Positions 2,773-56,908 of a stretch of DNA of 64,000 nt are shown here, piece by piece. The notes below the pieces were generated by a model that was not told the DNA's origin, searched no databases, and saw only the letters and a list, made by a program, of their open reading frames with translations. The stretch spans positions 128,001 through 192,000 of the forward strand of contig CBEVQO010000001.1 in assembly GCA_965552055.1 (NCBI GenBank), written 5' to 3'. The DNA comes from an uncultured bacterium. Lineage in GTDB: Bacteria; Hydrothermota; UBA3073; NMUJ01; CBEVQO01. Within the stretch, counting starts at the first letter, position 1. Every line of letters starts with the position of its first letter. Position numbers and translations under genes: made by a program.

Positions 2773-2799
2773 ATTATACTGAAAATTCGAGTTTGTCAA
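2773..2799 (-). promoter_or_regulatory. sigma70-type promoter of the tetR operon
   Basis: TTGACA(2799-2794)-N15-TATAAT(2778-2773). Confidence 0.8.
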
Positions 2800-2808
2800 G
2801 CTGGAATT

Positions 2809-5800
2809 TTAATGAGTATGTGCCAGCCAGAAGCAGTAAACTTTGCCTTTCTTCGTCCCTATTACTATGCAACTGTCAGATACACTTATTGATGGCAAAG
2901 ATAAGATTACGCTTCCCGTGTTGTATTTCCATATCAATTCGCCTGTCTCCTTGTTAATTGCATAGAAGAAGCCGTTATCCGCACCAAAATAACAAACTTT
3001 ATTCCAGACAATCGGGAGTGCATGAATGGGAGAACCTGCATCAAATGGATATGTTGTCCAGCCGTAAGGATTCTGGTTGCCAAGTGTATCCACCACCCAT
3101 AATTTTCCTCCTACATCCACAAAATAGATGTAGCGACCAGGTACAAAGAAATCCTGCCAGCACATTGTGTGAATCCCGGAGGAAGGATTTGTAAATGTCC
3201 AGACTACATTGAAGTTGGTAAAATCGATGCAATAAAAATCAGTACCATAACTTCCGACATAAATTTTATCAGAATAAAAATCATACCATGGAGCTGCTTT
3301 TACATCGCCTCCCAGTGCTTTAGCACCAGTCCAGTCTCCGTTTTCTGCGTTTATTTTAAATAAAGTATCGATATCGGAGCCTATTGCAATACTATTTGCC
3401 GATTTGTTTACACATGGTGAAGAACATATACTGCCATTTGTTGAGTAAGGTGTATTCCATGCTTCCTGACCGTTTGTTGCATTTAAAGCGTATATATTGC
3501 CATCAGATGCACCAAAATAAACTCTGTCGCCATCGGATATCACTGCACCAACTATCGCACCAGGCACATCGTAGGACCATAACACATTTGGGGAATTGCC
3601 CTCATCTTCAATTGCATAAACTTTAGCGTTTACACCATAAGTACCAAGGTAAATTTTGCCACCAAAATATGATGGTATGCCTCTTATTGCACCCGATAAT
3701 TTAAGCGTCCATATTGTATCTCCTGTATTTATATCCAGAGCATAAAATTTCCCGAGCTCATCCCCTATGTAGCATCTTCCGTTGTAAATTATAGCTGATG
3801 ACCTTATTTCTCCTATGTATTTATCTTTTTGTTCGGGATAAATCCACCTAACACTGCCAAATTTTTCAGACCACTCAATGACACCTCCTTCCTCAAATTC
3901 GTAATTTTCACCTGTTGCTTCACCGCCGTGATTTATTACCCACAAAGTATCCCCGTTTTTCAACCAGATGTTGTATTTGCATGAACTGTCGGAGAAGGTC
4001 AATCCATTGAATGTGTCTTTAAATGTTGAGGATGTTTTTCTTATCAATTTTAAGTAAACTCCATCTGATTTTATCTTACCAAAGTAAATATTGTCGAATG
4101 CTATTATGTTTGTGAGAGAATCTATTAAGAAAGTATCGACTCCTTCTATTACCAGATGTTGTATATTGAGGTCGTTTTTTATCTGTTTAATAACAAAGTA
4201 ATCATTTTGTGATGTGCTTATTATCTCCGGTGGAGCTAAGCCCTGTGCAGTGAAATCGCCTTCAATTATTGCTTTATTGCCGAGATAAAGCTTTGCACCG
4301 TCTTTTAATGTTAATTTGCCCTGAGATGTTACATGAAGGGAATCAAAAATTTTCACAGTGGAAGTGGAGTCAAAAATTAATTTTCCTGTTAGATAAAGAC
4401 CTTTTGTTTCTACATCGTATCCATTAAGGTTAAAGCAACATCCCGAGCCTATTTTTATGAATCCGACATGTGTTAAATCTTGCATAAGTTTTAAAGTATC
4501 GCAATTTGGTGGTAATGTTTTGATTCCTACATTTTTGTAAATGCCTCCTCCTTTTAACACTGCTGATTTGCAGAATACGAGTTCGGGATAGGTATCCATT
4601 GAATCTTCCGCTATAATCACTCCTTTATTTATGAATTCTTTTGTTTCCCTGAAATAAAAGCATATATTATCACCTGATTCTATTCTCAATGTGCAACCTG
4701 CGGGTATTATTACTTTTTCGCTTTCAAATACGAATTTGCCATACCACATACCACTTCCTTTCAATGTGCAAATTTCTGATTCTACTAGGAAAGAGTCATT
4801 TGCCACACCATAAGTTCTGATGAGTCCATCGTTTTTGATTGAAGTTCCTGCGAAGATAAATCCCCCTGAATTATTATTTATCCAGAGTGTACATGGCTGG
4901 TCAATAACCAGATTATTACTGTAGGAAATATCGCTTAAAGATGAGCACTTCTTCCTTGTTGCATCTTCCTGGATAAATACCTTTGAATAAGGGGGGGTGG
5001 ACATTGGAGTCTCATCGGAATCCCAGTTTCCCGGTGTATGCCAGTTATTGCTGATGTCACCTTCCCAGAAATAAGGTTCTCCCTTTGTATAGAAGGAGTC
5101 AATGATGGATGTTCTATTACCGACGCAATCTTTATACCATACTCTGTATTTGTATTTGGTTTTGCCGAGAAGTGGAGGTGTTGGTGACCATGTTGTATCT
5201 TCATCCCATCCCCATTTTTGATATTCCGGACTGCTGGTTATTATTGCATTACCTGAGTCAAGTTGCACACCATGATAAATTGGACCCGGTGAGTTATCGC
5301 TACCATAGCTGAAGATGATAGCGGGATTCCTTGGCACTTTATTCAGCAAAGAATAATGGGGATAAATTGTGAAAAGATTGGTCGGGTTTGCGTTATCCAG
5401 AACGAGTTCTATTTTTCTTTTTCCCTTTAAATCCTTTCTGTAAGCGGTTATTGTGATTTCTGTTTCCGCTGGGTCTCCCTGGTCTATTTTATAAACAAGG
5501 AAATAAGGTGCACCATTTTTATCTTTTGGAGTGTCACCAAACGCGGTGCTACCGACTACGGAGTCAAGTGTAGAATCTGATGAAACAAAGATAGTGCATT
5601 GAGTAGCATTTGGTATATTGGGTGTATTATCTGTCCTGTAATAAATTTTGAGCCATGGATAAGCAGAATAAACTCTTGCATAGGTGTGCTTTGCCCATTT
5701 GATGCTGTCTATGTAAACAGATAGTTTTGCTGTCTTAAAAGAATCGCATCCAGCTACATCTGCTGACCTGCCGCACCATATAGAGATGTTACCACCTTTA

Positions 5801-8262
5801 TCCTTTGCCCTTACTCTCCAGTAATATTTCATATCGGATTTTAACTTTGTGGTGCATACCCACATTGTATCTGTGAACCATGGTGAAGTAATGAGATTTA
5901 CCGAATTGAAATCTTTTGTTGTATCAAGCTGTATCTGATATGCTTCGACACCAAGTGGGTCTTCTGCTTTGCTTACGAACAAAATAGGTTGTATCGCTAT
6001 GTCCGAATCGTTAGAAGCAGGGGTTGATAGTTTTACGCCTGTAGGCGGTAGTGTATCGCACATTATATAGATTGAATCTCTGGCGGTTTGACCGCCATTT
6101 AGATGGGTATAAGAGGTAACAGTGAGCCAGCCCCATTTCTTTACACCCTGTTCTATTGAATATTGTAGAGAAAATGGTTTTATAGTATCTTTTGGTCTAT
6201 CAGCAAAGAATTCTTCGCCTACAACAGAATCTGAGCCAATGCTCGTAATGTAAAGCGTGAAGACAGCAGGTCCTATTGCTCCATAATAAAGTGTATCGTT
6301 CTGGAAGACAAGATAATCATAATTCTCTTTCAGTGAATCGATTATGCATCGCAAATTGGGGTCCCATTTGAGAGTGAGGTCTTTTAATACTGGTTCTGTT
6401 CCGTCGGCATTATGGTCGAATCTCAAAAATATTCTTATAGTGTCGTAAATTTCCGGGTCAAAATGATAAATATCAAGTGTATTTACATAGCAGAAAGGTG
6501 TAGCATCTTTCCATTCGCCTGTTTCCTTATACTGCAATTTTATACCGATTGAATCACCTGTATTTGAACTAATAATTATTTTATCCCATGAAATTGGAGT
6601 TTTAGGATGATTGTTAAAGATGATTGCAGGTGTAGTTAATTCACCCCAATTTGTATTTCCAGTGATAAATACAAAATCAATACCAACAGAATTAGCAGAA
6701 TCTTGATCAGCATACTTATATTGGAAGCCGATGTGTACAGGATACCAGTCATCGAAGGTAGAAATATCATGAGACATAAGTTCCCATACATGGTCAGGTT
6801 CGACCCAGTTATCGTATAGATGAATCTGTTGCCAAGAATTTTGGCTGTCACCCGATATTTTTACTAATAAAGAATCATGCCAGTTATATCGTTGAAATAG
6901 AGCAAATTTTAAAACACAGTTTGAGACTCCTTTCAGATTTAAAGTTGGCGAGATAAGCCATTTATTAAGAGTCACGAAATCTTCATATTCATGGATTGCC
7001 GCAAGCTTGCCATAAGTTGTGGTGTTAGGTGCTGCGAAATCTCCTCTATTCCAGTACTTTGTAGCGGTTTCATTTTGTCCGCTCTTCTGTGTCCAATATC
7101 GCGGAGCAGGTAAATTATCAGGAGGACCAGAAATCCAAGGTTCTTCAAAACTTTCAGGTCCAAATATAGTATCAAGAGAAGGAGGTCGCAAAATGGTAGA
7201 ATCTTTTAAAACTTTCAAGCCGCAAGATGGATTATCGTCGAATATTTGACCATCTTTTGTTTGATGCCAATCTTCGAAAGATAAAGAGGTATTTATCGTG
7301 AAACTAAAAACTTCTGACCAATTTCCCCATTGCCCTGTGCCAGCAGGATCTTTTGCTCGCACTTTCCAGAAATAAGTTTTTCCATTAAGTAAGACTCCGG
7401 TTGCGAAAAGGTACGAAGCCGTGTCTCCACTCGCATAAAGAAGAGTAGTATCACTATCCGCGGTTTGAAAATCAAAGAGAGTATCCCAACAAATTTGATA
7501 TCTTACCTGCTGGCCTTCAGGATCAGTAGTGGTAAAATATAATCTTACGGTATCATAATAAACTCTTATATTTTCAAAAGGAGCCAATAACTTTGGAGGA
7601 TTTGGAGGATGTCCAATATAATATACTACTGCCCTGATGCAAATATCATCATCTACTAAATACCAAGTTGAATGATCGGTAGAGAAATAAGACCTTAAAT
7701 CATCTCCCACTCCATCTCCACATATAAAAACATCTCGGTTTCCTAATAAACTTTTTTGAGTTAGGCAAAAAGTGGTAATCCAAAAATCGGATGTTACTAC
7801 AGGTTTTGTACTACTAGGAACCCAGTACCAATAGACACCCGTTTGGTTATTTTGGTAAAATACTTTGTCGAGAATTGTCCCAGGGAAACTGTTGTTATCT
7901 GTTCTTATGTACATCGTGTCATCGAAAATAGGAGAAAGAGAAGCAGAATAAATGCAAATCAATGCACCCAGAATAGTGCAAGCTTCCTGCGGAGTAAACC
8001 TTACACCCCAATATTCGGTAGAAGCATCAGAGTGCCAGCCTGTAGCTGAACCTGTGTCATATTCTATAGTATCCAAGGGATACCCCTTTGTAGGAGACAA
8101 AATTTGAATTTGAGGTTTCTTTAATAACTCTCTTAATTCTTTTAATTTCTCATCTTTCTTTAATTGATTTAATAAAATCTTTTTCATAGGTGGTTTTTCA
8201 GGTGCATTTTCTTTTAAGAGAAATGCACAGAGAAATATTAAACTTAACCCTACCCCATTCAT
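2809..8262 (-). CDS. Large secreted/surface multidomain protein (three FN3-like modules, adhesin/MAM-like domain, beta-helix-like region, C-terminal PQQ-type beta-propeller)
   Basis: Signal-like N-terminus; repeats YFWKVRAKD, YYWRVRAKD, YKYRVWYKD; WLISPTLNL; W.G....W....NW motif; repeated G..YAL...TG...W blades at the C-terminus. Confidence 0.75.
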   Translation of the reverse strand: MNGVGLSLIFLCAFLLKENAPEKPPMKKILLNQLKKDEKLKELRELLKKPQIQILSPTKGYPLDTIEYDTGSATGWHSDASTEYWGVRFTPQEACTILGALICIYSASLSPIFDDTMYIRTDNNSFPGTILDKVFYQNNQTGVYWYWVPSSTKPVVTSDFWITTFCLTQKSLLGNRDVFICGDGVGDDLRSYFSTDHSTWYLVDDDICIRAVVYYIGHPPNPPKLLAPFENIRVYYDTVRLYFTTTDPEGQQVRYQICWDTLFDFQTADSDTTLLYASGDTASYLFATGVLLNGKTYFWKVRAKDPAGTGQWGNWSEVFSFTINTSLSFEDWHQTKDGQIFDDNPSCGLKVLKDSTILRPPSLDTIFGPESFEEPWISGPPDNLPAPRYWTQKSGQNETATKYWNRGDFAAPNTTTYGKLAAIHEYEDFVTLNKWLISPTLNLKGVSNCVLKFALFQRYNWHDSLLVKISGDSQNSWQQIHLYDNWVEPDHVWELMSHDISTFDDWYPVHIGFQYKYADQDSANSVGIDFVFITGNTNWGELTTPAIIFNNHPKTPISWDKIIISSNTGDSIGIKLQYKETGEWKDATPFCYVNTLDIYHFDPEIYDTIRIFLRFDHNADGTEPVLKDLTLKWDPNLRCIIDSLKENYDYLVFQNDTLYYGAIGPAVFTLYITSIGSDSVVGEEFFADRPKDTIKPFSLQYSIEQGVKKWGWLTVTSYTHLNGGQTARDSIYIMCDTLPPTGVKLSTPASNDSDIAIQPILFVSKAEDPLGVEAYQIQLDTTKDFNSVNLITSPWFTDTMWVCTTKLKSDMKYYWRVRAKDKGGNISIWCGRSADVAGCDSFKTAKLSVYIDSIKWAKHTYARVYSAYPWLKIYYRTDNTPNIPNATQCTIFVSSDSTLDSVVGSTAFGDTPKDKNGAPYFLVYKIDQGDPAETEITITAYRKDLKGKRKIELVLDNANPTNLFTIYPHYSLLNKVPRNPAIIFSYGSDNSPGPIYHGVQLDSGNAIITSSPEYQKWGWDEDTTWSPTPPLLGKTKYKYRVWYKDCVGNRTSIIDSFYTKGEPYFWEGDISNNWHTPGNWDSDETPMSTPPYSKVFIQEDATRKKCSSLSDISYSNNLVIDQPCTLWINNNSGGFIFAGTSIKNDGLIRTYGVANDSFLVESEICTLKGSGMWYGKFVFESEKVIIPAGCTLRIESGDNICFYFRETKEFINKGVIIAEDSMDTYPELVFCKSAVLKGGGIYKNVGIKTLPPNCDTLKLMQDLTHVGFIKIGSGCCFNLNGYDVETKGLYLTGKLIFDSTSTVKIFDSLHVTSQGKLTLKDGAKLYLGNKAIIEGDFTAQGLAPPEIISTSQNDYFVIKQIKNDLNIQHLVIEGVDTFLIDSLTNIIAFDNIYFGKIKSDGVYLKLIRKTSSTFKDTFNGLTFSDSSCKYNIWLKNGDTLWVINHGGEATGENYEFEEGGVIEWSEKFGSVRWIYPEQKDKYIGEIRSSAIIYNGRCYIGDELGKFYALDINTGDTIWTLKLSGAIRGIPSYFGGKIYLGTYGVNAKVYAIEDEGNSPNVLWSYDVPGAIVGAVISDGDRVYFGASDGNIYALNATNGQEAWNTPYSTNGSICSSPCVNKSANSIAIGSDIDTLFKINAENGDWTGAKALGGDVKAAPWYDFYSDKIYVGSYGTDFYCIDFTNFNVVWTFTNPSSGIHTMCWQDFFVPGRYIYFVDVGGKLWVVDTLGNQNPYGWTTYPFDAGSPIHALPIVWNKVCYFGADNGFFYAINKETGELIWKYNTGSVILSLPSISVSDSCIVIGTKKGKVYCFWLAHTH

Positions 8263-8273
8263 CCTTCTTGGTT

Positions 8274-8301
8274 AATTTAATTCAAATTTTTCAATTGTCA
8301 A
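8274..8301 (-). promoter_or_regulatory. sigma70-type promoter of the large surface protein gene
   Basis: TTGACA(8301-8296)-N16-TAAATT(8279-8274). Confidence 0.6.
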
Positions 8302-8345
8302 GAAAAAATTTATCAAATTTTATCTTTTTTATCTTTAAAAATGGG

Positions 8346-8373
8346 TTGACAAAATAAAAATACAAAATATAAT
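8346..8373 (+). promoter_or_regulatory. sigma70-type promoter
   Basis: TTGACA(8346-8351)-N16-TATAAT(8368-8373). Confidence 0.75.
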
Positions 8374-8387
8374 TATGGGGACAGAAA

Positions 8388-9158
8388 TTGAATAAGATAG
8401 GGATAATAGGTGCAGGTAGAGCAGGAACTGCTTTTGGATATTCACTTCATCTTTCGGGTTATAAAATAATTGCTTTTCTGGAAAAAAATGAAATCAATGC
8501 AAAAAAATTTATGCAACTTACAGAATGTAAAAATTGGGAAAAGACCCCTTCTCAAATCTTTAAAGAATGTGATATCCTGTTTTTTACTTTGCCCGATGAT
8601 TTAATTGAAAAGATAAGTAATGAAATGTGGGAAAATGATTTTATAAATGAAAATGTGTTTTTGTTTCATGCAAGCGGTGCTTTGCCTTCTTCTATTTTAC
8701 CGGGTAAAAGAAGAGCATCAATTCATCCCTGTATCTCCATAAATTTTGAGAAATTCCCTGAAAATACAAATTTTGTGATAGAAGGAGATGAGGTAGCCAT
8801 TGAGAAAGCAAAAGAAATCGTTGAAAAATTGAAAGGCAAATATTACATAATAGATAAAGATAAAAAGTTGCTTTATCATTCTGCACTCTGTTTTGTATCG
8901 CCTTTCTGTTATACTCTTTTGCTAATCGGTGAAAAAATATTGAGAGATTTGAATTTGCCACAAAATTTGATTTGCGATTTATTTATGAGTATATGTAGAA
9001 ATTTGAAGGAGAAAGGAATTAGGGAGAGCATGACGGGTCCTCATTTGCGAGGCGATGTGAATTTGATAAAAAAGGAGATTGATGAATTAAAGAAAAAATA
9101 TCCTCAATTTTCAGAAATTTATCGTCTTCTTACGGATGCACTATTTAAATTGAAATAG
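8388..9158 (+). CDS. Rossmann-like/DUF2520 oxidoreductase (PanG-like putative ketopantoate reductase)
   Basis: IGIIGAGRAG, PDD, HASGA, SIHP, KLLYHSA, MTGPHLRGD motifs. Confidence 0.8.
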   Translation: MNKIGIIGAGRAGTAFGYSLHLSGYKIIAFLEKNEINAKKFMQLTECKNWEKTPSQIFKECDILFFTLPDDLIEKISNEMWENDFINENVFLFHASGALPSSILPGKRRASIHPCISINFEKFPENTNFVIEGDEVAIEKAKEIVEKLKGKYYIIDKDKKLLYHSALCFVSPFCYTLLLIGEKILRDLNLPQNLICDLFMSICRNLKEKGIRESMTGPHLRGDVNLIKKEIDELKKKYPQFSEIYRLLTDALFKLK

Positions 9159-9815: not shown

Positions 9816-9820
9816 CTTAT

Positions 9821-9848
9821 ATTTTACTGGATTAACTGAAAAAGTCAA
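9821..9848 (-). promoter_or_regulatory. Promoter of MNT-HEPN (leaderless geometry)
   Basis: TTGACT(9848-9843)-N16-TAAAAT(9826-9821)-5 nt-ATG. Confidence 0.7.
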
Positions 9849-9866: not shown

Positions 9867-9893
9867 TTGACAAAATAAAATTTTGATTATTTT
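9867..9893 (+). promoter_or_regulatory. Promoter of the rplM operon
   Basis: TTGACA(9867-9872)-N15-TATTTT(9888-9893); ATGs at 9896/9902, no SD. Confidence 0.6.
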
Positions 9894-17256: not shown

Positions 17257-17747
17257 AAATTTGCGTAATATCGGATACTCATGATAATCTATATGCTGTG
17301 GACGGCTTTGCGGAAAAAGTCAGGGGGAAGGTAGAGCTCATCCTGCACGCAGGTGATATTGTGGCACCTTTTGTCGTTAAGTCACTTAAGAAGGCGAATT
17401 GCAAGGTAATAGCGGTTTACGGCAATAATGATGGTGATAAATTACTGCTCAAGAAGAAATTCGAAGAGTCGGGTTTTGAGATTCATCCTCCTCCTCATAT
17501 CTTTGAAATAGGTGGCAAAAAGGTTCTTCTGATGCATTTTCCCGATTTTGTTGAAGAGATTGCGCACTCAGGTGAATTTGATTTAATAATTTATGGTCAT
17601 ACACATAAAGTAGATGTGCGTAAAATTGGTAATACCCTTATATTAAATCCCGGGGAACTGGGTGGCTGGTTGTCAGGCAAAAATACATATTGTTTGCTTG
17701 ACATTTCAACAATGTCATATAAAATAGAAGAAATAAGGAGGGGGTGA
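17253..17747 (+). CDS. YfcE/MJ0936-type metallophosphoesterase
   Basis: SDTHDN, HAGD, GNNDG, GHTH, NPG. Confidence 0.92.
   Translation: MKICVISDTHDNLYAVDGFAEKVRGKVELILHAGDIVAPFVVKSLKKANCKVIAVYGNNDGDKLLLKKKFEESGFEIHPPPHIFEIGGKKVLLMHFPDFVEEIAHSGEFDLIIYGHTHKVDVRKIGNTLILNPGELGGWLSGKNTYCLLDISTMSYKIEEIRRG
17698..17725 (+). promoter_or_regulatory. Internal promoter upstream of the Lrp-domain gene
   Basis: TTGACA(17698-17703)-N16-TAAAAT(17720-17725), then AGGAGG SD. Confidence 0.5.
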
Positions 17748-18921: not shown

Positions 18922-20212
18922 ATTTTTCACAGATACCCTTAAAATCGCTCCTCTACTGTTAAGATTTACAGATGTTTTGTTTCTAATTCCTTTTATTTTG
19001 TATTTCCTTTATCGGAAAATATGGGCAGGAGATAAACTTGAGGGCAGTGGTTTGTGGCTTTATCGCGGGATTCTGGTTTTTGCGGTTATCAGTGTAATAT
19101 CAGGGCTGTTAAATCTTTCGAGGATAAGATTGTATCCTGCGATTTTCTTTTTGTTCTTAACAACCGTTCCCTTTTTTTATTCTTTTTTAATATTGAATTC
19201 TTTTGATTATCATGTACTTGAGAAGAATTTTAAACTACTTTTATTTCTTGGCATATTGCAGATACCTGCTGGTCTTCTGGAATTTGCATATTTTGGTCCG
19301 CATGCCGATTTAATATCTGGCACATTTGGTGGCAATTGTTATCAGATGAATTTTTTCCTTTTTATTACCCTATGTGGTTTGCTTTCGTTGATTTCGATGA
19401 ATAAGAGATACTGGTATTATTTTCTCCTTTTCCCTCCTGCACTTTTTATCATATTGATGTCAGGCTTCAGGTCGATATGGGTTTTTTTCTTTATCATTAT
19501 AATAATTATAACATGCATAACAGCGTGGCATACAAGGACAAAAGTTATAGCCGTTCCGGCATTGGTGGCATTTATCGTTATAGGATTTACCATTTTTAAT
19601 TTAAAGCTCCCTGAAGCAAGGGGAAGGGATGTAGTATTCATTTTGAAGAATCCTTCAATAATACTGGAGTTCGGGAAAATAAGAGCTTTTTTAAATTTGT
19701 TTAAGATGTATAGTGATAATGCGAAGTGGCTGTTATTCGGGACAGGTCCCGGCTGTTATAATAGCAGAGCTTTCTGGATATTCTATCATTATGCCAAATC
19801 TATGAGGATTTTTCCAGTAATTGGTCCAACGGATGTTGCTCTGAAGTATGTTCTTCCGATATGGAGCACATCATTGTTATTTGTGAAATTTGGTTCTGCT
19901 ACAATTACCACTCCATGGTCAAGTTTCATCGGAATACCAGGGGAAGTGGGGATTACAGGTGCTTTGCTTTTCTTTTTCCTTTATATAAGAATTACTCACT
20001 TTGTATGGAAATGTCAAAGGTATGCTCTTAAAATAAGGGATGAGAATCTTTTTACTTTATCAACGATGGCGTTCGCAGGTATGCTCACTATCTGGTGTAT
20101 GGCAACACTCGGTAACTGGTTTGAATCAACAAGGGTTATGTTGATAGAATGGCTTTTAATTACACATTTAATAGCTGCAAAAAATAGAGGATTAATAAAA
20201 ATAAAATGCTGA
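18881..20212 (+). CDS. Wzy/O-antigen ligase-like polytopic membrane protein
   Basis: About 11-12 hydrophobic segments, SGTFGG, LFGTGPG, GEVGITG motifs. Confidence 0.65.
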   Translation: MLLYIFTIALITIRFFTDTLKIAPLLLRFTDVLFLIPFILYFLYRKIWAGDKLEGSGLWLYRGILVFAVISVISGLLNLSRIRLYPAIFFLFLTTVPFFYSFLILNSFDYHVLEKNFKLLLFLGILQIPAGLLEFAYFGPHADLISGTFGGNCYQMNFFLFITLCGLLSLISMNKRYWYYFLLFPPALFIILMSGFRSIWVFFFIIIIIITCITAWHTRTKVIAVPALVAFIVIGFTIFNLKLPEARGRDVVFILKNPSIILEFGKIRAFLNLFKMYSDNAKWLLFGTGPGCYNSRAFWIFYHYAKSMRIFPVIGPTDVALKYVLPIWSTSLLFVKFGSATITTPWSSFIGIPGEVGITGALLFFFLYIRITHFVWKCQRYALKIRDENLFTLSTMAFAGMLTIWCMATLGNWFESTRVMLIEWLLITHLIAAKNRGLIKIKC

Positions 20213-26829: not shown

Positions 26830-27221
26830 ACTGCTTCCTCCTCTTTAACTTCTTTCTTGGGTGTTTGACGCTCGAAGCCAACGAGTTTTATCATAACAAG
26901 TTCAGCATCATCTCCCCTGCGCCTCTTACCAAGCCTTATTATCTGAGTGTAACCACCAGGTCTATCCTTAAATTGGGGCGCTATTTCATCGATCAACTTT
27001 TTGACCATATCCTTAAAAGGAAATCTACGCAATAATAATCTTCTATTCGATAATGTAGGATTTTTTGCTATAGTTATCAATCTTTCCGCAAATGGTCGTA
27101 AAGCTTTTGCCTTCGCTTTTGTAGTTATAATACCATAATAAGTGAATAATGCACGGGCTAAGTTCCTCAACATCGCTTTCCTGTGAGCCGAAGTCCTATG
27201 TAGTTTCCGAACTTTCACCAT
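26826..27221 (-). CDS. rplQ: 50S ribosomal protein L17
   Basis: RKLHRTSAHRKAMLRN, ITTKAKAK, RPGGYT, RRGDDA; start 27221 (or TTG 27230). Confidence 0.96.
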   Translation of the reverse strand: MVKVRKLHRTSAHRKAMLRNLARALFTYYGIITTKAKAKALRPFAERLITIAKNPTLSNRRLLLRRFPFKDMVKKLIDEIAPQFKDRPGGYTQIIRLGKRRRGDDAELVMIKLVGFERQTPKKEVKEEEAV

Positions 27222-28218
27222 GCTGTGCAAGATATTTCTCTTTAACAGATTGAGGTATTTCCATACCAAAACGCAAATTGTAACGCTTTAATAATTCCTG
27301 TAAATCACTTAAAGTTTTCCTTCCCAAATTCTCAATTTGCAAAAGCTCAGATTCTTTTTTTGTCGCAAGGTCAAATAATGTTTTTATGCCTGCTTTCCTC
27401 AGACAGTTTTTAGCACGCTGAGAAACATCAAGGTCATCTATTCTTATTTTCAATGTCTCAAGTAATTTCCTTTCTTCTTCTGTCATCTCCTTTAATCTAA
27501 CATATTCTTTTTCTTCACTTAATTCTCTAAATTTGTTAAAATATTCGAGTAAGTTTATAGCAGCATGTGCAACAGCTTCTTTGGGATTTACTCTACCATC
27601 CGTCCACACTTCCAGGATCAATTTTTCATAATCAGAGCGCTGACCAATTCTTACATTTTCGACTCTGAAATTCGCTTTTGTAACAGGAGAATAAATACCA
27701 TCGATGAAGATAGTATCCACAGGTACAACATCGCCATATTCTGTTTTTAAAAGCTCTACAGGCACATATCCTCTACCCGAAGTTATAAACAATTCCATTT
27801 TTATCGGGTCTTTCCTATCCGTCACGGTCATTATATGTTGCTCTGGATTTGTGATTTCAAAAGTTCCATCACACGGAATATCTCCCGCTTTTATCTCGCC
27901 TTTCTTTTTAATCTCCCATTTTATCCTTTTATCAAGACCCGACAATAATTTTATCTTTACCTGTTTCAAGTTCAAAACAATTTCCGGGATATCTTCGAGC
28001 ACACCTTCTATTGTCGAGAACTCATGTAGCACGCCCTCTATCCTTATTCCCGTAATCGCAGTTGACTGAATAGATGACAAAAGTGCACGCCTCAAGCTGT
28101 TACCTATGGTTGTGCCAAAGCCACGCTCAAGAGGCTCAAAAATAAATCTTCCATAAGTATCTGTTAATTCTTCAATTTTAACCTCTTCCGGAATTTTCAT
28201 CGGTAAAAGTTTAAGCAT
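27196..28218 (-). CDS. rpoA: RNA polymerase alpha subunit
   Basis: EPLERGFGTTIGNSLRRALLSS, VLHEFSTIEGV, CTD NLGRKT. Confidence 0.98.
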   Translation of the reverse strand: MLKLLPMKIPEEVKIEELTDTYGRFIFEPLERGFGTTIGNSLRRALLSSIQSTAITGIRIEGVLHEFSTIEGVLEDIPEIVLNLKQVKIKLLSGLDKRIKWEIKKKGEIKAGDIPCDGTFEITNPEQHIMTVTDRKDPIKMELFITSGRGYVPVELLKTEYGDVVPVDTIFIDGIYSPVTKANFRVENVRIGQRSDYEKLILEVWTDGRVNPKEAVAHAAINLLEYFNKFRELSEEKEYVRLKEMTEEERKLLETLKIRIDDLDVSQRAKNCLRKAGIKTLFDLATKKESELLQIENLGRKTLSDLQELLKRYNLRFGMEIPQSVKEKYLAQHGESSETT

Positions 28219-29246: not shown

Positions 29247-29273
29247 ATAATAACGATTTTTGTAAATTGTCAA
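29247..29273 (-). promoter_or_regulatory. Promoter of the rpsK-rpoA operon
   Basis: TTGACA(29273-29268)-N15-TATTAT(29252-29247)-7 nt-ATG. Confidence 0.75.
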
Positions 29274-29308: not shown

Positions 29309-29335
29309 TTGACTTTATGATATTATGTTTAATTA
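29309..29335 (+). promoter_or_regulatory. Promoter of the uxs-nadD operon
   Basis: TTGACT(29309-29314)-N15-TAATTA(29330-29335)-5 nt-ATG 29341; -10 imperfect. Confidence 0.5.
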
Positions 29336-36658: not shown

Positions 36659-36685
36659 ATTATAATTCCTTTCAATATTTGTCAA
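36659..36685 (-). promoter_or_regulatory. Promoter of wzm-wzt (leaderless geometry)
   Basis: TTGACA(36685-36680)-N15-TATAAT(36664-36659)-5 nt-ATG. Confidence 0.85.
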
Positions 36686-36695: not shown

Positions 36696-36722
36696 TTGAC
36701 ATTTCTGAAGGATAGGTAAAAT
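36696..36722 (+). promoter_or_regulatory. Promoter of recA
   Basis: TTGACA(36696-36701)-N15-TAAAAT(36717-36722), then GGAGG SD. Confidence 0.8.
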
Positions 36723-37765: not shown

Positions 37766-38496
37766 TAAAACTCCGGGATGTAAAATTTTTAAGAAAAAAT
37801 TTTGAGTTAAAAGTAAATTTTGAGATTAAAAAAGGGGAATTTCTCGGAATAATAGGCCCCAATGGTAGCGGTAAAACGACGCTTTTACTCTTAATGTGTA
37901 ATATTTTGAAGCCAAATGACGGAGAGATTTTTTTATTCGATAAAAGAATAGAAGAATACAGCAGGCTGGAGATAGGCAGGAGAATTGCATTTTTACCACA
38001 GAGGATAGATTTTATATACGATTTTAAAGTGTTTGATACGATACTTATGGGGCGATATCCTCATTCTGTTTATTGTAATAAAAAGGAAGATTTTGAGATT
38101 GCAGAAAAAGCATTGAAAGATTGTGGGATTTATCACTTGAAAGATAGATATTTGAGTGAGTTATCAGGAGGCGAACTCCAGCTTACCCGCATTGCCCGTG
38201 CTTTGGCGCAATCAACCCAGATATTACTGCTGGATGAACCTGCACAAAATCTGGATATAAATCACATAATACAGATATTTGAATTGCTCAAAAAATTAAA
38301 TGAAGAAGGTCTAACCATAATCTGTACTTCCCATGAGATAAATATAACTTTAAACTATTTTAAGAGGATTATTTTACTTGATGAAGGTAAAATAGTTTAT
38401 GATGGTGAACCTTCTTCCGAAGATTTAGCGCGAAATTTGCGAAAAACTTTTAAAATAAAAGATGAATTCTCATGGGTGCTTGGAGTTTTCGCTTGA
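37762..38496 (+). CDS. ABC ATPase, FepC/BtuD-like (no permease or binding protein nearby)
   Basis: [26 protein letters not shown]. Confidence 0.88.
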
Positions 38497-38519
38497 CAAA
38501 TTGCTTTTTTCTTTAAATT
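38493..38519 (+). promoter_or_regulatory. Promoter of the R-M pair (leaderless geometry)
   Basis: TTGACA(38493-38498, contains the upstream TGA stop)-N15-TAAATT(38514-38519)-6 nt-ATG 38526. Confidence 0.65.
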
Positions 38520-43255: not shown

Positions 43256-43282
43256 ATTTTATTGAAAAGAGAAAAATGTCAA
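43256..43282 (-). promoter_or_regulatory. Promoter upstream of the retropepsin-like gene and a small ORF
   Basis: TTGACA(43282-43277)-N15-TAAAAT(43261-43256)-5 nt-ATG 43250. Confidence 0.7.
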
Positions 43283-43848: not shown

Positions 43849-43875
43849 TTGACTTTCGAATAATCTCGCTATAAT
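43849..43875 (+). promoter_or_regulatory. Promoter of guaD (leaderless geometry)
   Basis: TTGACT(43849-43854)-N15-TATAAT(43870-43875)-4 nt-GTG. Confidence 0.75.
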
Positions 43876-45514: not shown

Positions 45515-45541
45515 TTGACCTTTGGACTTCATGGTTATAAT
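45515..45541 (+). promoter_or_regulatory. Promoter of perR/fur (leaderless geometry)
   Basis: TTGACC(45515-45520)-N15-TATAAT(45536-45541)-5 nt-ATG. Confidence 0.8.
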
Positions 45542-45965: not shown

Positions 45966-46001
45966 TTGACAATTTACAATTATGGTTATAATGATTTGTA
46001 A
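45966..46001 (+). promoter_or_regulatory. Promoter of the oxidative-stress operon with an overlapping putative PerR/Fur site
   Basis: TTGACA(45966-45971)-N15-TATAAT(45987-45992); TTACAA...TTGTAA inverted repeat and TTATAATGATTTGTA over the -10. Confidence 0.75.
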
Positions 46002-50752: not shown

Positions 50753-51689
50753 CTCTTATTTTTACAGCGAGCTCCTGAATAGCATCTCTCCATAGCTGAA
50801 TATCGTATTCTATTTCCTTTTCTTCTTCTATTTCCTTTACAAATTTTTTCTCTTTGAGAGAGAAAATTTTACATTTTATTTTAACAAGTTGATTTTCTTT
50901 TGATACCTCACCTGTGATTATATATTCCACTTCCAATCTTCTACCCAGGTTTAAAAGTTCATCTTCTGTAAATTCGTATCCGGGTTTAGTGAGGCTTAAA
51001 TTTTCTCTTTCTCTTGAGATATCTTCTTTTTCTGGTATAGCGAATCCTGAGGAAACGAGTGCAGTGCTTAAATATACGGGTATTTTTTCACTATAATTCT
51101 CTTCCTTTGCTTCTTCGTTTAATTCTTTAAATTCGAGCACAAGTATTTTTGTTCTCTTTTCAGGTTTTGCTACTCCTTTTTTCTCGTATTCGCTGTTCAA
51201 TTCTTCGATCACTCTATCCGTGAGGTCAAGGTCTGGCTTCGCATAAACAACACCCATTCCTGCTACATCAAGGATTATGGTGTAACCTTCTTCCTCTGCT
51301 ATTCTTTTTAATATTTCCGAAACTTTTTCAACAAGCGGTTGCATTATCAATTTGTTTTGCTTCTCTGCTTCTCCTCCCGGACCCCATATCCTCTGTATAA
51401 ACTCCTGATATTCTTTCTGTAATTCTTCTAACTCTTTTTCTCTCTCTTTCAATGCTTCTTCGGATAGAAGCAATCTTTGAGATTCTATTTCTCTGTATTT
51501 TTCTTCTATCTTTTTTCGCATTTCTGCTGCTTTTTGCTGCCATTCCTGTAATTTTTTGTTCCATTCCGCCTCTAATCTCGCTCTGCCTTTATATTCCTGA
51601 AATATCCTTTGAGAATCTATATATCCTATTTTAACCGCACCCATCAAATCTGAAGCAAAAAGCACCAAAATAAAAGAATATTTACGCAT
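50736..51689 (-). CDS. skp: OmpH/Skp chaperone fused to a C-terminal CsgG/TolB_N-like domain
   Basis: KIGYIDSQRIF...coiled coil...YTIILD...DLTDRVIEELN, then KILVLEF...LGRRLEVEYIITGEV. Confidence 0.8.
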   Translation of the reverse strand: MRKYSFILVLFASDLMGAVKIGYIDSQRIFQEYKGRARLEAEWNKKLQEWQQKAAEMRKKIEEKYREIESQRLLLSEEALKEREKELEELQKEYQEFIQRIWGPGGEAEKQNKLIMQPLVEKVSEILKRIAEEEGYTIILDVAGMGVVYAKPDLDLTDRVIEELNSEYEKKGVAKPEKRTKILVLEFKELNEEAKEENYSEKIPVYLSTALVSSGFAIPEKEDISRERENLSLTKPGYEFTEDELLNLGRRLEVEYIITGEVSKENQLVKIKCKIFSLKEKKFVKEIEEEKEIEYDIQLWRDAIQELAVKIRDAISH

Positions 51690-52290
51690 TATCCCTCCTT
51701 CTTAATTTGTTTTTAACATAAAAGAAGCGGTACAGGGCAGTCCAGTTTGATAAAAATGCTATTAATGCAACAAAGTAAGGAAAAATTTTTTGCCCACAAA
51801 ATAGTCCTATCATCAATAAAAATATTCTTACACCTCGCTGTGTGAAACCTACTTTGCATTCCTGACCAAGACCTTCTGCTCTCGCACGAGTATAACTCAC
51901 CATATAGGAACCAAGTAAAGCAAAAAATATCAAAATTAAAATCCATAATTTATCGCGATAGTACAAAAGAGCTCCGAAATATATAAAAAATTCGCCATAT
52001 CTATCGAGAACAGAATCGAGAAAAGCGCCAAAGAGAGAGGTTTTACCAGTAGCCCGTGCTACAACACCATCTATCCCATCAAGCGGGAAAGCAAGAAGCA
52101 AAAATATACCTGCAAGCCAGAATTTTGAAAGACAAATAAATAATCCACATAAGACATTTGTAAGAAATGCCAGAAAAGTTACAAAATTTGGATGTATCCC
52201 TGCTTTTATAAAAGGAAGTGCAAGTTTATACAAAATTACATCTCTGCCTGATTGGGTAAATAACTCCTGAATAATTTCTTTAATTTTCAT
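51682..52290 (-). CDS. CDP-alcohol phosphatidyltransferase
   Basis: HPNFVT, DGIDGVVAR...GAFLDSVLDR, SYTRARAE. Confidence 0.92.
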   Translation of the reverse strand: MKIKEIIQELFTQSGRDVILYKLALPFIKAGIHPNFVTFLAFLTNVLCGLFICLSKFWLAGIFLLLAFPLDGIDGVVARATGKTSLFGAFLDSVLDRYGEFFIYFGALLYYRDKLWILILIFFALLGSYMVSYTRARAEGLGQECKVGFTQRGVRIFLLMIGLFCGQKIFPYFVALIAFLSNWTALYRFFYVKNKLRRRDNA

Positions 52291-52865
52291 CTTCCGATTT
52301 TTGGTTCTTCTCCTTTTATCAATCTTTTGATATTTGGTGTATGTCTTAGAATTACGATTGCAGCTCCTATTCCTGTCGTTATTATCAGAATACCGGATTT
52401 ACCGAAAATATAGCATAGAAAAGGTAAAGATGCGGATGCTATCATTGAGGATAAAGAGACTATTCTTGATATTTTAAGTGAGATAAGCCATATTCCAAAA
52501 GCGATTCCTGCCTGTGCAGGTATGATACCGAGGAAAGAGCCGAGTCCAACGGCAACACCTCTTCCGCCTTTAAAACGCAAATAAGGGGTAAATGAATGAC
52601 CTAGAACCGCAGAAACAGCACTTATCCCAGCCCAGAATTCCCCATAAAACTGATTGCAAATTAAAACAGGGATAAATCCTTTAAGTAAATCAAGGATAAA
52701 TACAACGATACCCCATTTTTTGCCACATACACGCGAAACATTCGTAGCACCTATATTGCCACTGCCATATTGCCTTATATCAACACCTTTTACTGCTTTT
52801 GTAATTAAATAGCCAAAAGGAATAGCTGATATGAAAAAAGTAAGTATTGGGAAAATTATTCCCAT
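52287..52865 (-). CDS. plsY: Glycerol-3-phosphate acyltransferase
   Basis: DIRQYGSGNIGATN, GH, FKGGRGVA, RH.PNI.RL. Confidence 0.95.
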   Translation of the reverse strand: MGIIFPILTFFISAIPFGYLITKAVKGVDIRQYGSGNIGATNVSRVCGKKWGIVVFILDLLKGFIPVLICNQFYGEFWAGISAVSAVLGHSFTPYLRFKGGRGVAVGLGSFLGIIPAQAGIAFGIWLISLKISRIVSLSSMIASASLPFLCYIFGKSGILIITTGIGAAIVILRHTPNIKRLIKGEEPKIGR

Positions 52866-54079
52866 TTTACAAGCCGTATAGGTAATCCCCAGAGCTCAAA
52901 CCTTTCTCTTATCGCCCTTTCTATATATTTTCGTTCATTCTCCTTTAAATCTTCAGTAACTTTCACTTTGAAAGTGAGTGGCTCTATCCCTATCTGTACC
53001 ATTTTTTTGACTTTTTTCAATCTAAGCGATTGCACTATTTCTTTCAGGTCATCATTTGGATATGTTCTTCTTGCTTTTTTGTAAAGTTCTATCGCTTTAT
53101 CCAGAGGTTCGTAAATTCTTTCTCCCTTCAATGCTGATATGTAAAAAAGTGGCACAAAATATGCAAAATCAAGTTGATTTGGATGGAATTTTACTTCTTC
53201 GAGGTCTATTTTATTAACAGCGAGTATAAGTCCTTTTCCTTTTTCGAGCACAAGATTTATCAATCTTTTATCCTGCCGTGTTAAATGCTCTGTGCAATCA
53301 AGGAGCTGTATAGCCACATTACATCTTTCTATGGCTGACTCTGAGCGTAAGCTGCTAAAGTATTCTACTGCCGAATCAACACGAGAGCGACGACGCAAAC
53401 CAGGAGTGTCAACAAGCTGAATCAATCTACCTTTATACTCAAATGTTATATCAATAGAATCAACCGTTGTGCCGGGTTTTTCATCAACAATAAGCCTATC
53501 TTCTCCTATTATTTTGTTTATGTAAGTAGATTTCCCGACATTTGGTCTTCCGATGATTGCAATTTTTATCTTCGCTTCAGCAACAGGCGCACCTTCTACC
53601 TCTTTTTCTATCCTTCGTAAAAGAGAACTTATCCCCCTACCATGCAATGCAGATATCGGATAGATATCAAAACCAAATTTTTGAAATTCATATGCCCTTT
53701 TCAACCGCGAGTCATTATCTACTTTATTAACAGCAAGAATTACCTTTTTGCCGTATTTCCTTAAAAATTCCGCTATCTCTTCATCACCGCCTGTTATTCC
53801 ATCTTTTACATCTGTCATGAATATCACAAGGTCTGTCTTTTCGAGAAATTTTATTATCTTTTCTTTTACTTTCTCCTTTATTCCAGATATTCCATGTAGA
53901 ATTAACCCGCCTGTATCAGCGAGCAAAATTATTTTTCCGTCAAGATTAAGGGGTTTTATGTTTATGTCACGGGTAACGCCGGGGGTGTAAGAAGTTACTG
54001 CCTCTCTTTCGCCTATCAATCTGTTAAAAAGTGTAGATTTACCTACATTTTCTCTCCCGATTATCGTTACTAATCCCAT
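52856..54079 (-). CDS. der: Ribosome biogenesis GTPase Der/EngA (short KH tail)
   Basis: Two G-domains: GRENVGKS/DTGG/NKVD and GRPNVGKS/DTPG/NKID. Confidence 0.93.
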   Translation of the reverse strand: MGLVTIIGRENVGKSTLFNRLIGEREAVTSYTPGVTRDINIKPLNLDGKIILLADTGGLILHGISGIKEKVKEKIIKFLEKTDLVIFMTDVKDGITGGDEEIAEFLRKYGKKVILAVNKVDNDSRLKRAYEFQKFGFDIYPISALHGRGISSLLRRIEKEVEGAPVAEAKIKIAIIGRPNVGKSTYINKIIGEDRLIVDEKPGTTVDSIDITFEYKGRLIQLVDTPGLRRRSRVDSAVEYFSSLRSESAIERCNVAIQLLDCTEHLTRQDKRLINLVLEKGKGLILAVNKIDLEEVKFHPNQLDFAYFVPLFYISALKGERIYEPLDKAIELYKKARRTYPNDDLKEIVQSLRLKKVKKMVQIGIEPLTFKVKVTEDLKENERKYIERAIRERFELWGLPIRLVKWE

Positions 54080-54675
54080 CGGAGATTAAGAGAGTTTATG
54101 GTAGCCGGTTTTATCCCTCTTCTGGAAAGATAAGCGAATAATCTTCTCTTTTTGACTTCCTTTGGCAAATCTTTGTTCTTTTCGAGCCATCTCTTTGCTA
54201 ATCTTTCTGCAAGTTCTTTTTCCTCCTCATTATTGTTGGCATTCAAAACATCCTCTATTATCTTTTCAGATATACCTCTTTTAAGCAATTCAAATTTTAT
54301 TCTGTTTTTACCCATTTCTTCCCGCTTCTCTTCAAAGTATAATTCGGCAAATTTTCTATCATCTATCAAGCCCAACCTTTTATAATTCTTGATAACTTCA
54401 TTTATTATGTCTTTTGGAATTTTTGTGTATTTCAACCTTTCTCTGATTTCTTTTTCCGTTCTCATTCTCACTGATAGCAATCTTCCTATGTGATTTTCTG
54501 CAAGTTGTCGCCAGTTAAATCGTTTTATGGATTCTATTTGGGTTTCTTTAAGCTTTTGCCCTTCTCTCAGTCCAAATTCCTTTACCGTAACAGGCAAAAG
54601 ACTTAATTTTTCACCGTTTTTAAAATGAATAACATATTCCCTTATTTTGTTTTCTACTTTCTCTATTTCTTTCAT
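54070..54675 (-). CDS. recX: RecA regulator RecX
   Basis: LLSVRMRTEKEIRERL, LIDDRKFA, EL.KRGI, YLSRRG. Confidence 0.88.
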   Translation of the reverse strand: MKEIEKVENKIREYVIHFKNGEKLSLLPVTVKEFGLREGQKLKETQIESIKRFNWRQLAENHIGRLLSVRMRTEKEIRERLKYTKIPKDIINEVIKNYKRLGLIDDRKFAELYFEEKREEMGKNRIKFELLKRGISEKIIEDVLNANNNEEEKELAERLAKRWLEKNKDLPKEVKKRRLFAYLSRRGIKPATINSLNLRWD

Positions 54676-55304
54676 TAAGATTTCTTTGGAGCTTTTGCCC
54701 GCCTTATAATGAGGTATCCTCCTTTTGGACCCGGCACTGCTCCTTTTACAATCAATATATTATTTTCTTTATCAACTTTAAAAACTTTCAGGTTCCTGAC
54801 GGTTACCTTTCGTCCTCCCATTCTTCCTGGCATCTTTGTTCCTTTTCTCACTTCACTTGGGTCGGTTCCTGCGCCTATTGACCCGGGTGCACGATGAAAA
54901 CGGGAGCCATGAGCAGCAGGACCGCCTGCAAAACCATGACGCTTAACAACACCCTGAAAGCCTTTAGCTTTGGAAATGCCTGTAACATCAACATATTCGC
55001 CTTCCTTGAAAATGTCAACCGTAACTGTATCCCCTACTTTCCATTCTCTCTCGGGGTCTCTTATCTCTCTTAAAATAGCGGTAGGTTCTACTCCTGCCTT
55101 TTTAAACACTCCACTGTAAGGCTTATTGGGATGCTTTTTCTTACCGAAACCTATAACTATTGCCCTGTATCCATCTGTTTCTTCGGTTTTAACATGAATC
55201 ACAGGACAAGGTCCTGCTTCTATAAGTGTGCATGGAACAGCTTCTCCTTTCTCATCGAATAATTGTGCCATCCCCAATTTTTTACCAATTATGCCATCCA
55301 TCAC
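54675..55304 (-). CDS. rplC: 50S ribosomal protein L3
   Basis: GKKLGMAQ, KGFQGVVKRH, HRAPGSIG, KGAVPG. Confidence 0.98.
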   Translation of the reverse strand: MMDGIIGKKLGMAQLFDEKGEAVPCTLIEAGPCPVIHVKTEETDGYRAIVIGFGKKKHPNKPYSGVFKKAGVEPTAILREIRDPEREWKVGDTVTVDIFKEGEYVDVTGISKAKGFQGVVKRHGFAGGPAAHGSRFHRAPGSIGAGTDPSEVRKGTKMPGRMGGRKVTVRNLKVFKVDKENNILIVKGAVPGPKGGYLIIRRAKAPKKS

Positions 55305-55606
55305 ATCTGTTTCATTTCAATATCAACACCTTCCGGTATTGTTAGCTGCTCCATAACCCTTATTGTCTGCTCATTTGTATCTGTTACCTCTATCAACCTT
55401 TTATGTATCTTCAATTCGAATTGTTCAAACGATTTCTTATAAACATGTGGCGAGCGCAAAACAGAAATAAGCGTACGCTTAGTGGGAAGTGGTATAGGTC
55501 CCTTGACTTTCGCACCTGTTTTCTTTATAGCTTTCACGAGTTCTTCAACACATTTATCAAGCAGAGTATGGTCGTATGATTTCAATTTTATCCTTATTTT
55601 TTCCAT
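55301..55606 (-). CDS. rpsJ: 30S ribosomal protein S10
   Basis: IRIKLKSYDH, GPIPLPT, RSPHV. Confidence 0.98.
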   Translation of the reverse strand: MEKIRIKLKSYDHTLLDKCVEELVKAIKKTGAKVKGPIPLPTKRTLISVLRSPHVYKKSFEQFELKIHKRLIEVTDTNEQTIRVMEQLTIPEGVDIEMKQM

Positions 55607-56859
55607 TATTCTATTACTTCTGTTACCACACCTGCTCCTACTGTCCTTCCGCCTTCTCTTATTGCGAATCTCATCTGGGGCTCCAGAGCAACAGGATACA
55701 TAAGGTCAACTGTCATCTCCACATTATCGCCCGGCATCACCATCTCTACACCTTCTGGAAGCGTAATCTTACCCGTAACATCGCATGTCCTGAAATAGAA
55801 TTGCGGTGAATAGCCAGAATGGAAAGGTGTATGCCTTCCTCCTTCTTCTTTCTTCAGCACATAAACCTGTGCTTTGAACTTCTTATAAGGTTTTATCGTA
55901 CCGGGCGCTGCAACAACCATTCCTCTCTCTACTTCATCTTTGGCAATTCCTCTCAACAATATTCCAATATTATCACCTGCTCTCGCTTCATCAAGTGTCT
56001 TTCTAAACATCTCTATTGATGTCGCTACTGTTTCCTTAACAACCCCAAATCCCACAATTTCTACTTTATCACCTGGTCTCAATCTTCCTCTCTCCACCCT
56101 GCCCGTTACAACCGTTCCTCTTCCAGTTATGCTGAAAACATCTTCTACGCTCAAAAGAAATGGTTTATCTTCTTCACGAGTAGGATCCGGAATATATTCA
56201 TCTACTGCTTTTATCAAATCAAAAATTGGTTTAAATGGATCTCCTTCTTCCACTTCTCCTTCCAGCACCTTCTTTGCGTGGTCCTCCGATAATTCCGTTT
56301 CGAGTGCTTTTAAAGCGCTTCCCTTAATGATTGGCACTTCATCTCCCGGGAATTCGTATTTACTTAATAATTCTCTTACTTCCATTTCAACGAGTTCTAT
56401 CAGCTCGGGGTCATCCACCATATCTATTTTGTTGATAAATACCACCATCGCAGGTACATTCACCTGTCTTGCGAGAAGAACATGTTCTCTTGTCTGTGCC
56501 TGTGGACCTTCATTTGCAGATACCACGAGTATAGCGCCATCCATCTGTGCTGCACCTGTAATCATATTTTTAACATAGTCTGCGTGTCCAGGGCAGTCAA
56601 TGTGAGCATAGTGACGAGTAGGTGTCACATACTCTCCGTGCCACAACTGAATAGTCAATCCCCTTGCCTTCTCCTCAGGTGCTTTATCTATCTGGTCAAC
56701 AGGTGCATATTCCGCCCAGTAGCCCTTATCTCTCGCAGCCTGAGTAGAGAGCAGTTTCGTTATCGCAGATGTAAGCGTCGTCTTACCATGGTCAACATGA
56801 CCTATTGTACCTATGTTTACATGCTTTCTATCTCTCCATTTAAATGCTTCCCTTGACAT
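55606..56859 (-). CDS. tuf: Elongation factor Tu (divergent)
   Basis: [38 protein letters not shown]. Confidence 0.97.
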
Positions 56860-56881
56860 AACCCCCCCTTAAGCACTTCTA

Positions 56882-56908
56882 TAAATATTCATTTTTTGAA
56901 TTTGTCAA
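56882..56908 (-). promoter_or_regulatory. Internal promoter for tuf
   Basis: TTGACA(56908-56903)-N15-TATTTA(56887-56882), then G-rich SD; -10 imperfect. Confidence 0.55.

Follow-up and report, generated by a model that had tools for sequence, protein, structure and literature searches.

The spacing of 17 +/- 1 base pairs (bp) between the -35 box and the -10 box counts as a near-constant of bacterial transcription and has been built into promoter predictors. Among 49 species with mapped transcription starts, 17-bp spacers predominate and starts are centred 7 bp behind the -10 box (Kuo et al., PMC12641261). For Escherichia coli, spacers of 15-21 bp occur and those of 15-19 bp are tolerated, with a peak at 17 bp (Klein et al., PMC8695583). 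The short primary sigma factors of Bacteroidota and Chlorobi use promoters of the form TTG-N17-23-TANNTTTG, and the -10 box of Chlorobaculum tepidum is given as TA[ATC][ATC][AT]T (10.1101/172254). We analyzed a 64,000-nucleotide (nt) stretch of contig CBEVQO010000001.1 (the window), in which the first-pass annotation had described housekeeping promoters with spacers of 15 bp instead of 17 bp, together with the 2.23-Mb, 97% complete genome that holds it (G000). N15, N16 and N17 denote the number of bp between the -35 box and the -10 box.

The RNA polymerase alpha subunit (RpoA) of G000 has its best named relatives in WOR-3 and Candidatus Stahlbacteria (51-55% identity), which makes WOR-3 the probable phylum; the bacterium is probably heat-loving. 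No close relative was found among the metagenome contigs (best RpoA 52%) or the named genomes searched. G000 is the sole member of its family (f1) in our comparison set, and the sister family f2 comprises G001, G070 and G105.

The promoters of G000 share with canonical sigma70/sigmaA promoters both hexamers, the invariant A-11 and T-7, and an A-rich stretch upstream of the -35 box, and the recognition residues in sigma2.3-2.4 and sigma4.2 are conserved in its RpoD. They differ in that the spacer mode is 15 bp with N17 at background level, outside the optimum of 17 +/- 1 bp, that the extended -10 TG lies at -16/-15 instead of -15/-14, and that the predicted start lies 6 rather than 7 bp behind the box; furthermore, the RpoD lacks R441, V454 and E458. 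A 15-bp spacer is workable for E. coli sigma70 too, but as a rare tail, whereas in G000 it is the rule, including tRNA and ribosomal-protein genes. Like the Bacteroidota and Chlorobi, G000 has a short sigma factor of like size and motif without region 1.1, and f2, where no RpoD was found, combines such a short sigma factor with a TANNTT box. Read as TTG-N18-TA, the promoter of G000 falls within the range cited for those phyla, and its box would likewise lie close to +1. However, G000 keeps RpoD, a full TTGACA and TAWAAT instead of TANNTT, and it has a sharp single spacing as opposed to a broad range. A literature search, in which few subscription papers were reachable, found no publication that describes a genome-wide mode of 15 bp or the promoters of WOR-3.

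Spacer mode and promoter register in the genome

The genome-wide spacer mode, which had been set beforehand as the test of the proposal, turned out to be 15 bp. The perfect consensus TTGACA-N-TATAAT occurs 7, 121, 27, 7 and 4 times at N14, N15, N16, N17 and N18 in the whole genome. When the best box was assigned to each of 657 intergenic TTGACW sites, 330 had it at N15, 50 at N16 and 19 at N17, and 197 had no good box; a shuffled intergenic control gave about 20 at each of the three spacings, which puts N17 in G000 at the shuffle level. Of the 6-mers upstream of genes, TTGACA ranks with the most enriched (395 occurrences, 51 expected), and position 6 of the -35 box is A in 86% of N15 sites. 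The -10 boxes of 366 intergenic N15 sites are mostly TAAAAT (124) or TATAAT (113). N15 sites stand at 210 of 368 divergent gene heads (25 with N16, 42 with N17, 120 with none) and at only 9 of 374 convergent gene ends. Genome-wide scans of G000 for sigma28 and extracytoplasmic function (ECF) promoters gave no peak.

We could rule out that repeats inflate the N15 count, as the 121 perfect sites have 121 different spacers in 119 clusters. We also rejected the idea that N15 boxes in G000 and G001 are shadows of N17 boxes. TTGACA sites of G000 with a single possible box number 38, 355, 75, 50 and 32 at N14 to N18, and a further 56 have boxes at both N15 and N17. Such shadows are real elsewhere: in a viral contig (loci L471/L472), which at first resembled an N15 phage before the single-box filter, each of the 14 TTGACA sites that carry an N15 box has a second one at N17, and none is N15-only. 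Along 40 kb of this 52-kb contig lie 44 or more promoter-like sites with TTGACA, at N16 or N17, many of them directly 5' of short genes, with the ATG often 34-38 nt after TTGACA.

The promoter register was assessed from three landmarks, namely the ATG opening an open reading frame (ORF), position 1 of tRNAs and the extended -10 TG, so that start sites are predictions from sequence. Of 524 N15 sites, 101, 53 and 27 have an ORF-opening ATG 5, 6 and 7 nt behind the box, and with a stricter N15 pattern the ATG lies 5-7 nt behind the box at 179 of 453 sites (about 40%), suggesting that leaderless mRNAs would be common in G000. The distance from TTGACA to ATG follows the box, because it peaks at 32 nt for N15-only and at 33 nt for N16-only sites; the peak is at 35-36 nt in the N17 phage contig. 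A purine stands 5 nt behind the box in 383 of the 453 sites, the same 5 nt at which the ATG peaks, and the start site is predicted 6 rather than 7 bp behind the -10 box.

The tRNA genes point in the same direction. We placed 45 tRNAs, 25 of which have TTGAC within 60 nt; one was dropped (TTGACC at 28 nt, no -10 box). In the remaining 24, position 1 follows TTGAC at 32 (1), 33 (1), 34 (7), 35 (6), 36 (6), 38, 40 and 45 nt, and 19 have a TANNNT box at N15. Thus, 9 of 24 lie at 32-34 nt in G000, as compared with at least 36 nt in 14 of 14 from partial samples of five relatives. The +1 of a standard promoter at 35 nt (6+17+6+6) would fall inside nine of these tRNAs, from which we predict a promoter that is shorter by 2-3 bp as a whole. 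Most of the promoter-proximal tRNAs have predicted 5' leaders of 0-4 nt, despite an RNase P RNA at G000:C1:36248-36525, which is short, 278 nt versus about 340 nt in relatives. Of 394 G000 sites, 30% have the TG of the extended -10 element at -16/-15 and 4% have it at -15/-14; in the N17 relative G065 (n=48) the figures are 2% and 54%.

We conclude that the N15 sites of G000 are almost certainly working promoters. The pattern is a genuine variation on the sigma70 promoter that extends over the whole genome and stands last in a 15/16/17 series in one phylum. The proposed lineage-specific promoter geometry is supported by the N15 mode, by the ATG and tRNA positions and by the contrast with relatives.

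Spacers and sigma factors across the phylum

We tallied the perfect consensus by hand in 151 genomes of the phylum; the tallies are descriptive rather than tests, as kin are not independent. The mode is N16 in 86 genomes, N17 in 42 and N15 in two (G000 and G008), with three ties and 18 genomes having fewer than ten sites. The commonest mode in the phylum is hence N16, not N17. Several families are sharp, with 8/803/73 sites at N15/N16/N17 in f24, 5/585/59 in f17 and 3/24/1466 in f4. The family f28 is not N15, and 80 unrelated loci peak weakly at N17. In f3, the perfect consensus leans to N15 (21/13/3), whereas relaxed patterns lean to N16 (22/47/40 in G045). G045 also has a dispersed repeat of about 20 copies on several contigs, which starts with TTGACGG, has a TAYAAT box at N17 and contributes to the N17 count. 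Perfect sites are few in the sister family f2, and relaxed patterns peak at N15 in its three genomes (13/7/5, 17/5/2 and 9/5/1). In G001, the box is TANNTT, with 40/21/7 sites at N15/N16/N17 in 400 kb of 1.4 Mb. At -8, A is found in 76% of G000 sites and in 93% and 71% of those of RpoD-bearing relatives, whereas T is found in 88% of 25 G001 sites.

G000 encodes RpoD, a 272-residue short sigma factor, FliA and two smaller sigma factors that are probably of the ECF type. RpoD has 575 residues with two region-1.1-like repeats, and its gene lies behind dnaG at G000:C7 57373-59100. It scores 285-288 bits on TIGR02393, below the cut-off of 354, under which 18 of 27 other WOR-3 RpoDs fall too. No candidate scored exceeds about 35% full-length identity to it. 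The terminal branch of its sigma2-sigma4 is 1.32, compared with 0.47 or less elsewhere in the class, while its beta branch is ordinary (0.58). A second member of its cluster differs at about one residue by eye and is uninformative on selection.

RpoD of G000 retains 72 of 100 highly conserved columns, including the melting and -35 residues. In sigma2.4-3.0, however, 9 of 17 highly conserved positions are changed, among them R441K, V454P and E458N (E. coli numbers, assigned by alignment offset). The contact with the extended -10 TG is assigned to R441, V454 and E458, and the latter two are 100% conserved in 1002 primary sigma factors (PMC4593229). E458 and the 19-residue spacing from H455 to G475 occur in all 113 parsed homologs, where G000 has N and 18 residues; a one-residue deletion after H455 in sigma3 is shared by none of the 113. 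Two single-residue insertions flank the sigma finger, which is without most of its acidic residues. A structural model of RpoD has an intact sigma70 fold (mean pLDDT confidence 86, finger region below 50) and matches E. coli sigma70 chains, although a model of free sigma says nothing of holoenzyme geometry.

RpoD was not found in any of the three f2 genomes (G001, G070 and G105; 99, 87 and 66% complete). Where dnaG was found, in G001 and G070, an unrelated gene follows it in place of rpoD, and the only f2 sigma factors found are the short one and one smaller one. No further RpoD-less lineage appeared among five genomes tested of f12, f22, f28 and f30. The short sigma factor of G000 (G000:C5 66580-67398) spans only sigma1.2 to sigma4 and is encoded in a degP-sigma-M23 operon with an N15 promoter. 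The short sigma factors of G000 and f2 have a canonical WWIRQ and a sigma4 RERVRQ, while most other class members have WWIKH or WWIKQ. The motif resembles that of one Prevotellaceae sigma factor, whose single locus is without degP upstream.

What sets the distance between the boxes

We tentatively favour, at somewhat less than even confidence, an RNA polymerase with a remodelled RpoD whose optimum has moved from 17 to 15 bp and which reads ordinary TTGACA/TAWAAT boxes 15 bp apart. Sigma4 would still bind TTGACA and sigma2 would still melt TAWAAT, because the recognition residues are unchanged, but on the core enzyme the two domains would lie nearer to each other by about 7 A and be turned by about 70 degrees. 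The changed sigma3 helix would account for the TG moved to -16/-15, and the changed sigma finger for the short gap to +1. The spacer would likely have drifted across the phylum from 17 over 16 to 15 bp via many small changes, neither through one indel nor through reverse gyrase, and f2 would have inherited N15 promoters and later passed them to its short sigma factor. We favour RpoD because the A-rich box is like that of relatives with an RpoD and unlike that of the RpoD-less sister family, because no second promoter class is visible in G000 and because the changed residues read the elements that moved. The tie between the -8 base and RpoD is suggested by comparison of sequences, and the accessible part of PMC4496690 does not settle what reads -9 and -8.

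Several observations weigh against RpoD as the reader. All three f2 genomes have an N15 mode without an RpoD found; the RpoD changes are therefore not needed for N15, and two sigma factors must fit N15 in turn. The short sigma factor is also without R441, V454 and E458. In G025 (f15), RpoD is as diverged as in G000, with changes in 32 of 100 conserved columns and these three residues missing, yet the mode is N16/N17; conversely, f3 leans to N15 on the perfect consensus with an RpoD that is ordinary. In G045 (f3), which has an RpoD, the base at -8 is T in 57% of 19 sites, which weakens the argument from this base. Sigma2-sigma4 length does not track the spacer mode among 35 RpoDs. In addition, expression by E. 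coli sigma70 stays high with a 15-bp spacer (PMC8695583), and therefore only a modest shift of the optimum is needed. The interpretation in the first-pass annotation is partly supported: RpoD does have an unusual sigma3 and finger, but f2 reaches N15 with no RpoD found, and the beta-flap tip is free of indels.

Neither an RpoD indel nor a beta-flap-tip indel that tracks the spacer mode was found (35 RpoDs; beta at the class level). A shifted -35 specificity at normal distance is not favoured, as the sigma4.2 helix is unchanged. Crude text-pattern searches for MerR, CarD and HU returned nothing, from which it does not follow that they are absent.

A takeover by the short sigma factor is plausible, though on balance we doubt it. 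The 272-residue protein would have become the housekeeping sigma factor in the ancestor of the order and would read N15, with RpoD lost in f2 and turned into a fast-evolving secondary factor in G000. One event would then cover the common N15 mode, the missing RpoD of f2 and the long RpoD branch of G000, and is more economical for the latter two. Short sigma factors are known as primary ones in Chlorobi and Bacteroidota (10.1101/172254), those of G000 and f2 keep the canonical motifs, the operon has its N15 promoter, and the midpoint-rooted beta tree joins f1 with f2 (SH-aLRT 97). However, the box is TAWAAT in G000 versus TANNTT in f2, and TANNWT or TANNTTTG where short sigma factors are primary. 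No separate RpoD regulon is visible in G000, given N17 at the shuffle level and the TA that 13 of the 24 N17-only intergenic sites retain in the N15 register, and RpoD is intact although the beta subunits of f1 and f2 are only 55% identical. Families with N16 or N17 also carry the short sigma factor, and the two sampled (G050 and G065) are without an N15 class.

It is unlikely that the core enzyme sets the ruler, i.e. that an altered beta flap, switch 3 or beta' clamp brings sigma4 closer for any sigma factor, so that both sigma factors read N15. Core contacts tune the spacer preference of an ECF sigma factor (10.1101/534826). Two different sigma factors serve N15 in the same order, and the mode varies by family without tracking RpoD indels. 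Furthermore, f1 and f2 share changes at 15 beta positions otherwise invariant in the class, including K825R, S1099 and S1102 (G000 numbering), a comparison that covers this class only. K825R belongs to the flap tip, and the other two positions lie near switch 3; the shared changes may be plain common ancestry. There is no flap indel, and three changes are private to G000 and missing from f2, namely G842A in the beta flap helix, R47K in the beta' zipper and a 4-residue insertion in the beta' clamp. A cause in the beta' N-terminal domains, as had been suggested, accordingly has candidate changes in G000 that its N15 sister family does without. The rpoB gene of G001 has no rpoC behind it, as the two genes are on separate contigs (L078:3117-6668 on G001:C18 and L323 on G001:C31).

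The flagellar promoter also speaks mildly against a core ruler. The sigma28 consensus is TAAAGTTT-n11-GCCGATAA (PMC2859248), and the single flagellin promoter of G000 (G000:C4, about 7026-7052) fits it at 6 of 8 positions with the normal n11 but at 1 of 8 with n9. One normally spaced site weighs mildly against a ruler shortened for every sigma factor, and as a control for the RpoD reading, too, it is one site.

DNA topology, where reverse gyrase would over-twist the chromosome and a normal holoenzyme would then prefer shorter spacers, is very improbable. In this class, only three of 22 genomes (G000, G001 and G070) have a reverse gyrase above the cut-off, but the 27 other carriers in the phylum sum to 12/165/325 at N15/N16/N17 (255/4268/3395 in 120 non-carriers), so that the topological cause offered in the first-pass annotation is insufficient. 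G000 has the A subunit of a type II topoisomerase, and by simple arithmetic over-twisting does not take away 7 A of length. For E. coli, where mild relaxation only was applied, spacer length is a minor, non-significant factor in the supercoiling response (PMC8695583). Lastly, an artefact or another register (a true -10 box at N17 with N15 as its shadow, a repeat or a regulator's binding site) is hardly credible: N17 shadows do occur, as in the phage contig, but the 355 N15-only versus 50 N17-only sites, the 121 distinct spacers, the ATG and tRNA positions and the placement at divergent and hardly at convergent gene ends all speak against it.

We consider it an evenly balanced proposition that the -35/-10 ruler is an evolvable trait, that the phylum has genomes tuned to 15, 16 and 17 bp with unchanged boxes, and that the holoenzyme of this order has closed by two bp with its sigma3 contact and start shifted, to form a compact promoter complex without a solved counterpart. 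Textbook boxes at 15 bp beside relatives at 16 bp (f17, f24) or 17 bp (f4) form a natural series, suited to finding what fixes the sigma2-sigma4 distance: sigma, core or both. Two candidate sigma factors and a small set of substitutions make the cause testable with purified proteins. Promoter scans fixed at 16-18 bp would miss most promoters of this order, and, if the proposition is true, the sigma factors of this order could be used as transcription tools that select by spacer and are partly orthogonal.

Promoter sites in the window

All 12 N15 and four N16 sites listed in the first-pass annotation read as described. The two called weaker there (uxs and tuf) are indeed without T-7, while the other 10 of the 12 N15 sites have a full TANNNT. 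A scan of the window for TTGAC[ACT]-N-TANNNT gave 11/5/3 sites at N15/N16/N17, whereas 200 local shuffles averaged 3.2 and never exceeded 9; the eleventh N15 site is absent from the earlier list. All sites are collected in Table 1 with two RNA polymerase genes.

Table 1. Promoter sites and RNA polymerase genes in the window (positions are those of the window).
Feature	Position	Strand	Boxes	Basis or remark
N15 site, absent from the earlier list	2754..2780	+	TTGACT/TATACT	pattern scan
N15 promoter, TetR-family gene	2773..2799	-	TTGACA/TATAAT	ATG 9 nt behind -10 box; TetR-family matches
N16 promoter	8274..8301	-	TTGACA/TAAATT	sequence, pattern scan
N16 promoter	8346..8373	+	TTGACA/TATAAT	sequence, pattern scan
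N16 promoter	9821..9848	-	TTGACT/TAAAAT	ATG 5 nt behind box
N15 promoter	9867..9893	+	TTGACA/TATTTT	upstream of gene labelled rplM in the first pass, label only
N16 promoter	17698..17725	+	TTGACA/TAAAAT	sequence, pattern scan
RNA polymerase alpha subunit	27196..28218	-		basis for lineage placement
N15 promoter, rpsK	29247..29273	-	TTGACA/TATTAT	ATG 29239, 7 nt behind box; predicted leaderless or nearly so
Weak N15 site, uxs in first-pass naming	29309..29335	+	TTGACT/TAATTA	sequence; without T-7
N15 promoter, KpsM/Wzm-like gene	36659..36685	-	TTGACA/TATAAT	ATG 36653, 5 nt behind box; predicted leaderless
N15 promoter, recA	36696..36722	+	TTGACA/TAAAAT	leader with Shine-Dalgarno
N15 promoter	38493..38519	+	TTGACA/TAAATT	in-frame ATG (38526) 6 nt behind box
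N15 promoter	43256..43282	-	TTGACA/TAAAAT	sequence, pattern scan
N15 promoter, guanine deaminase	43849..43875	+	TTGACT/TATAAT	N17 reading TAATTT also possible
N15 promoter, PerR/Fur-family gene	45515..45541	+	TTGACC/TATAAT	ATG 45547, 5 nt behind box; predicted leaderless
N15 promoter	45966..45992	+	TTGACA/TATAAT	TG at -16/-15
Weak N15 site	56882..56908	-	TTGACA/TATTTA	without T-7; upstream of gene labelled tuf in the first pass, label only
rpoC (beta'), 3' part	60466..63969	-		5' end and rpoB just outside the window, G000:C1 about 192,000-196,100

The additional N15 site overlaps a perfect 16-bp palindrome (2754-2769). The palindrome sits behind the -10 box of the TetR-family gene and ahead of its start codon, and is a candidate operator through which this gene might repress itself. 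Outside the window, an N15 promoter at G000:C11 (about 19690-19725), 5' of a Clp-ATPase-like gene named from its N-terminus, has an inverted repeat inside its spacer, which is a candidate repressor site.

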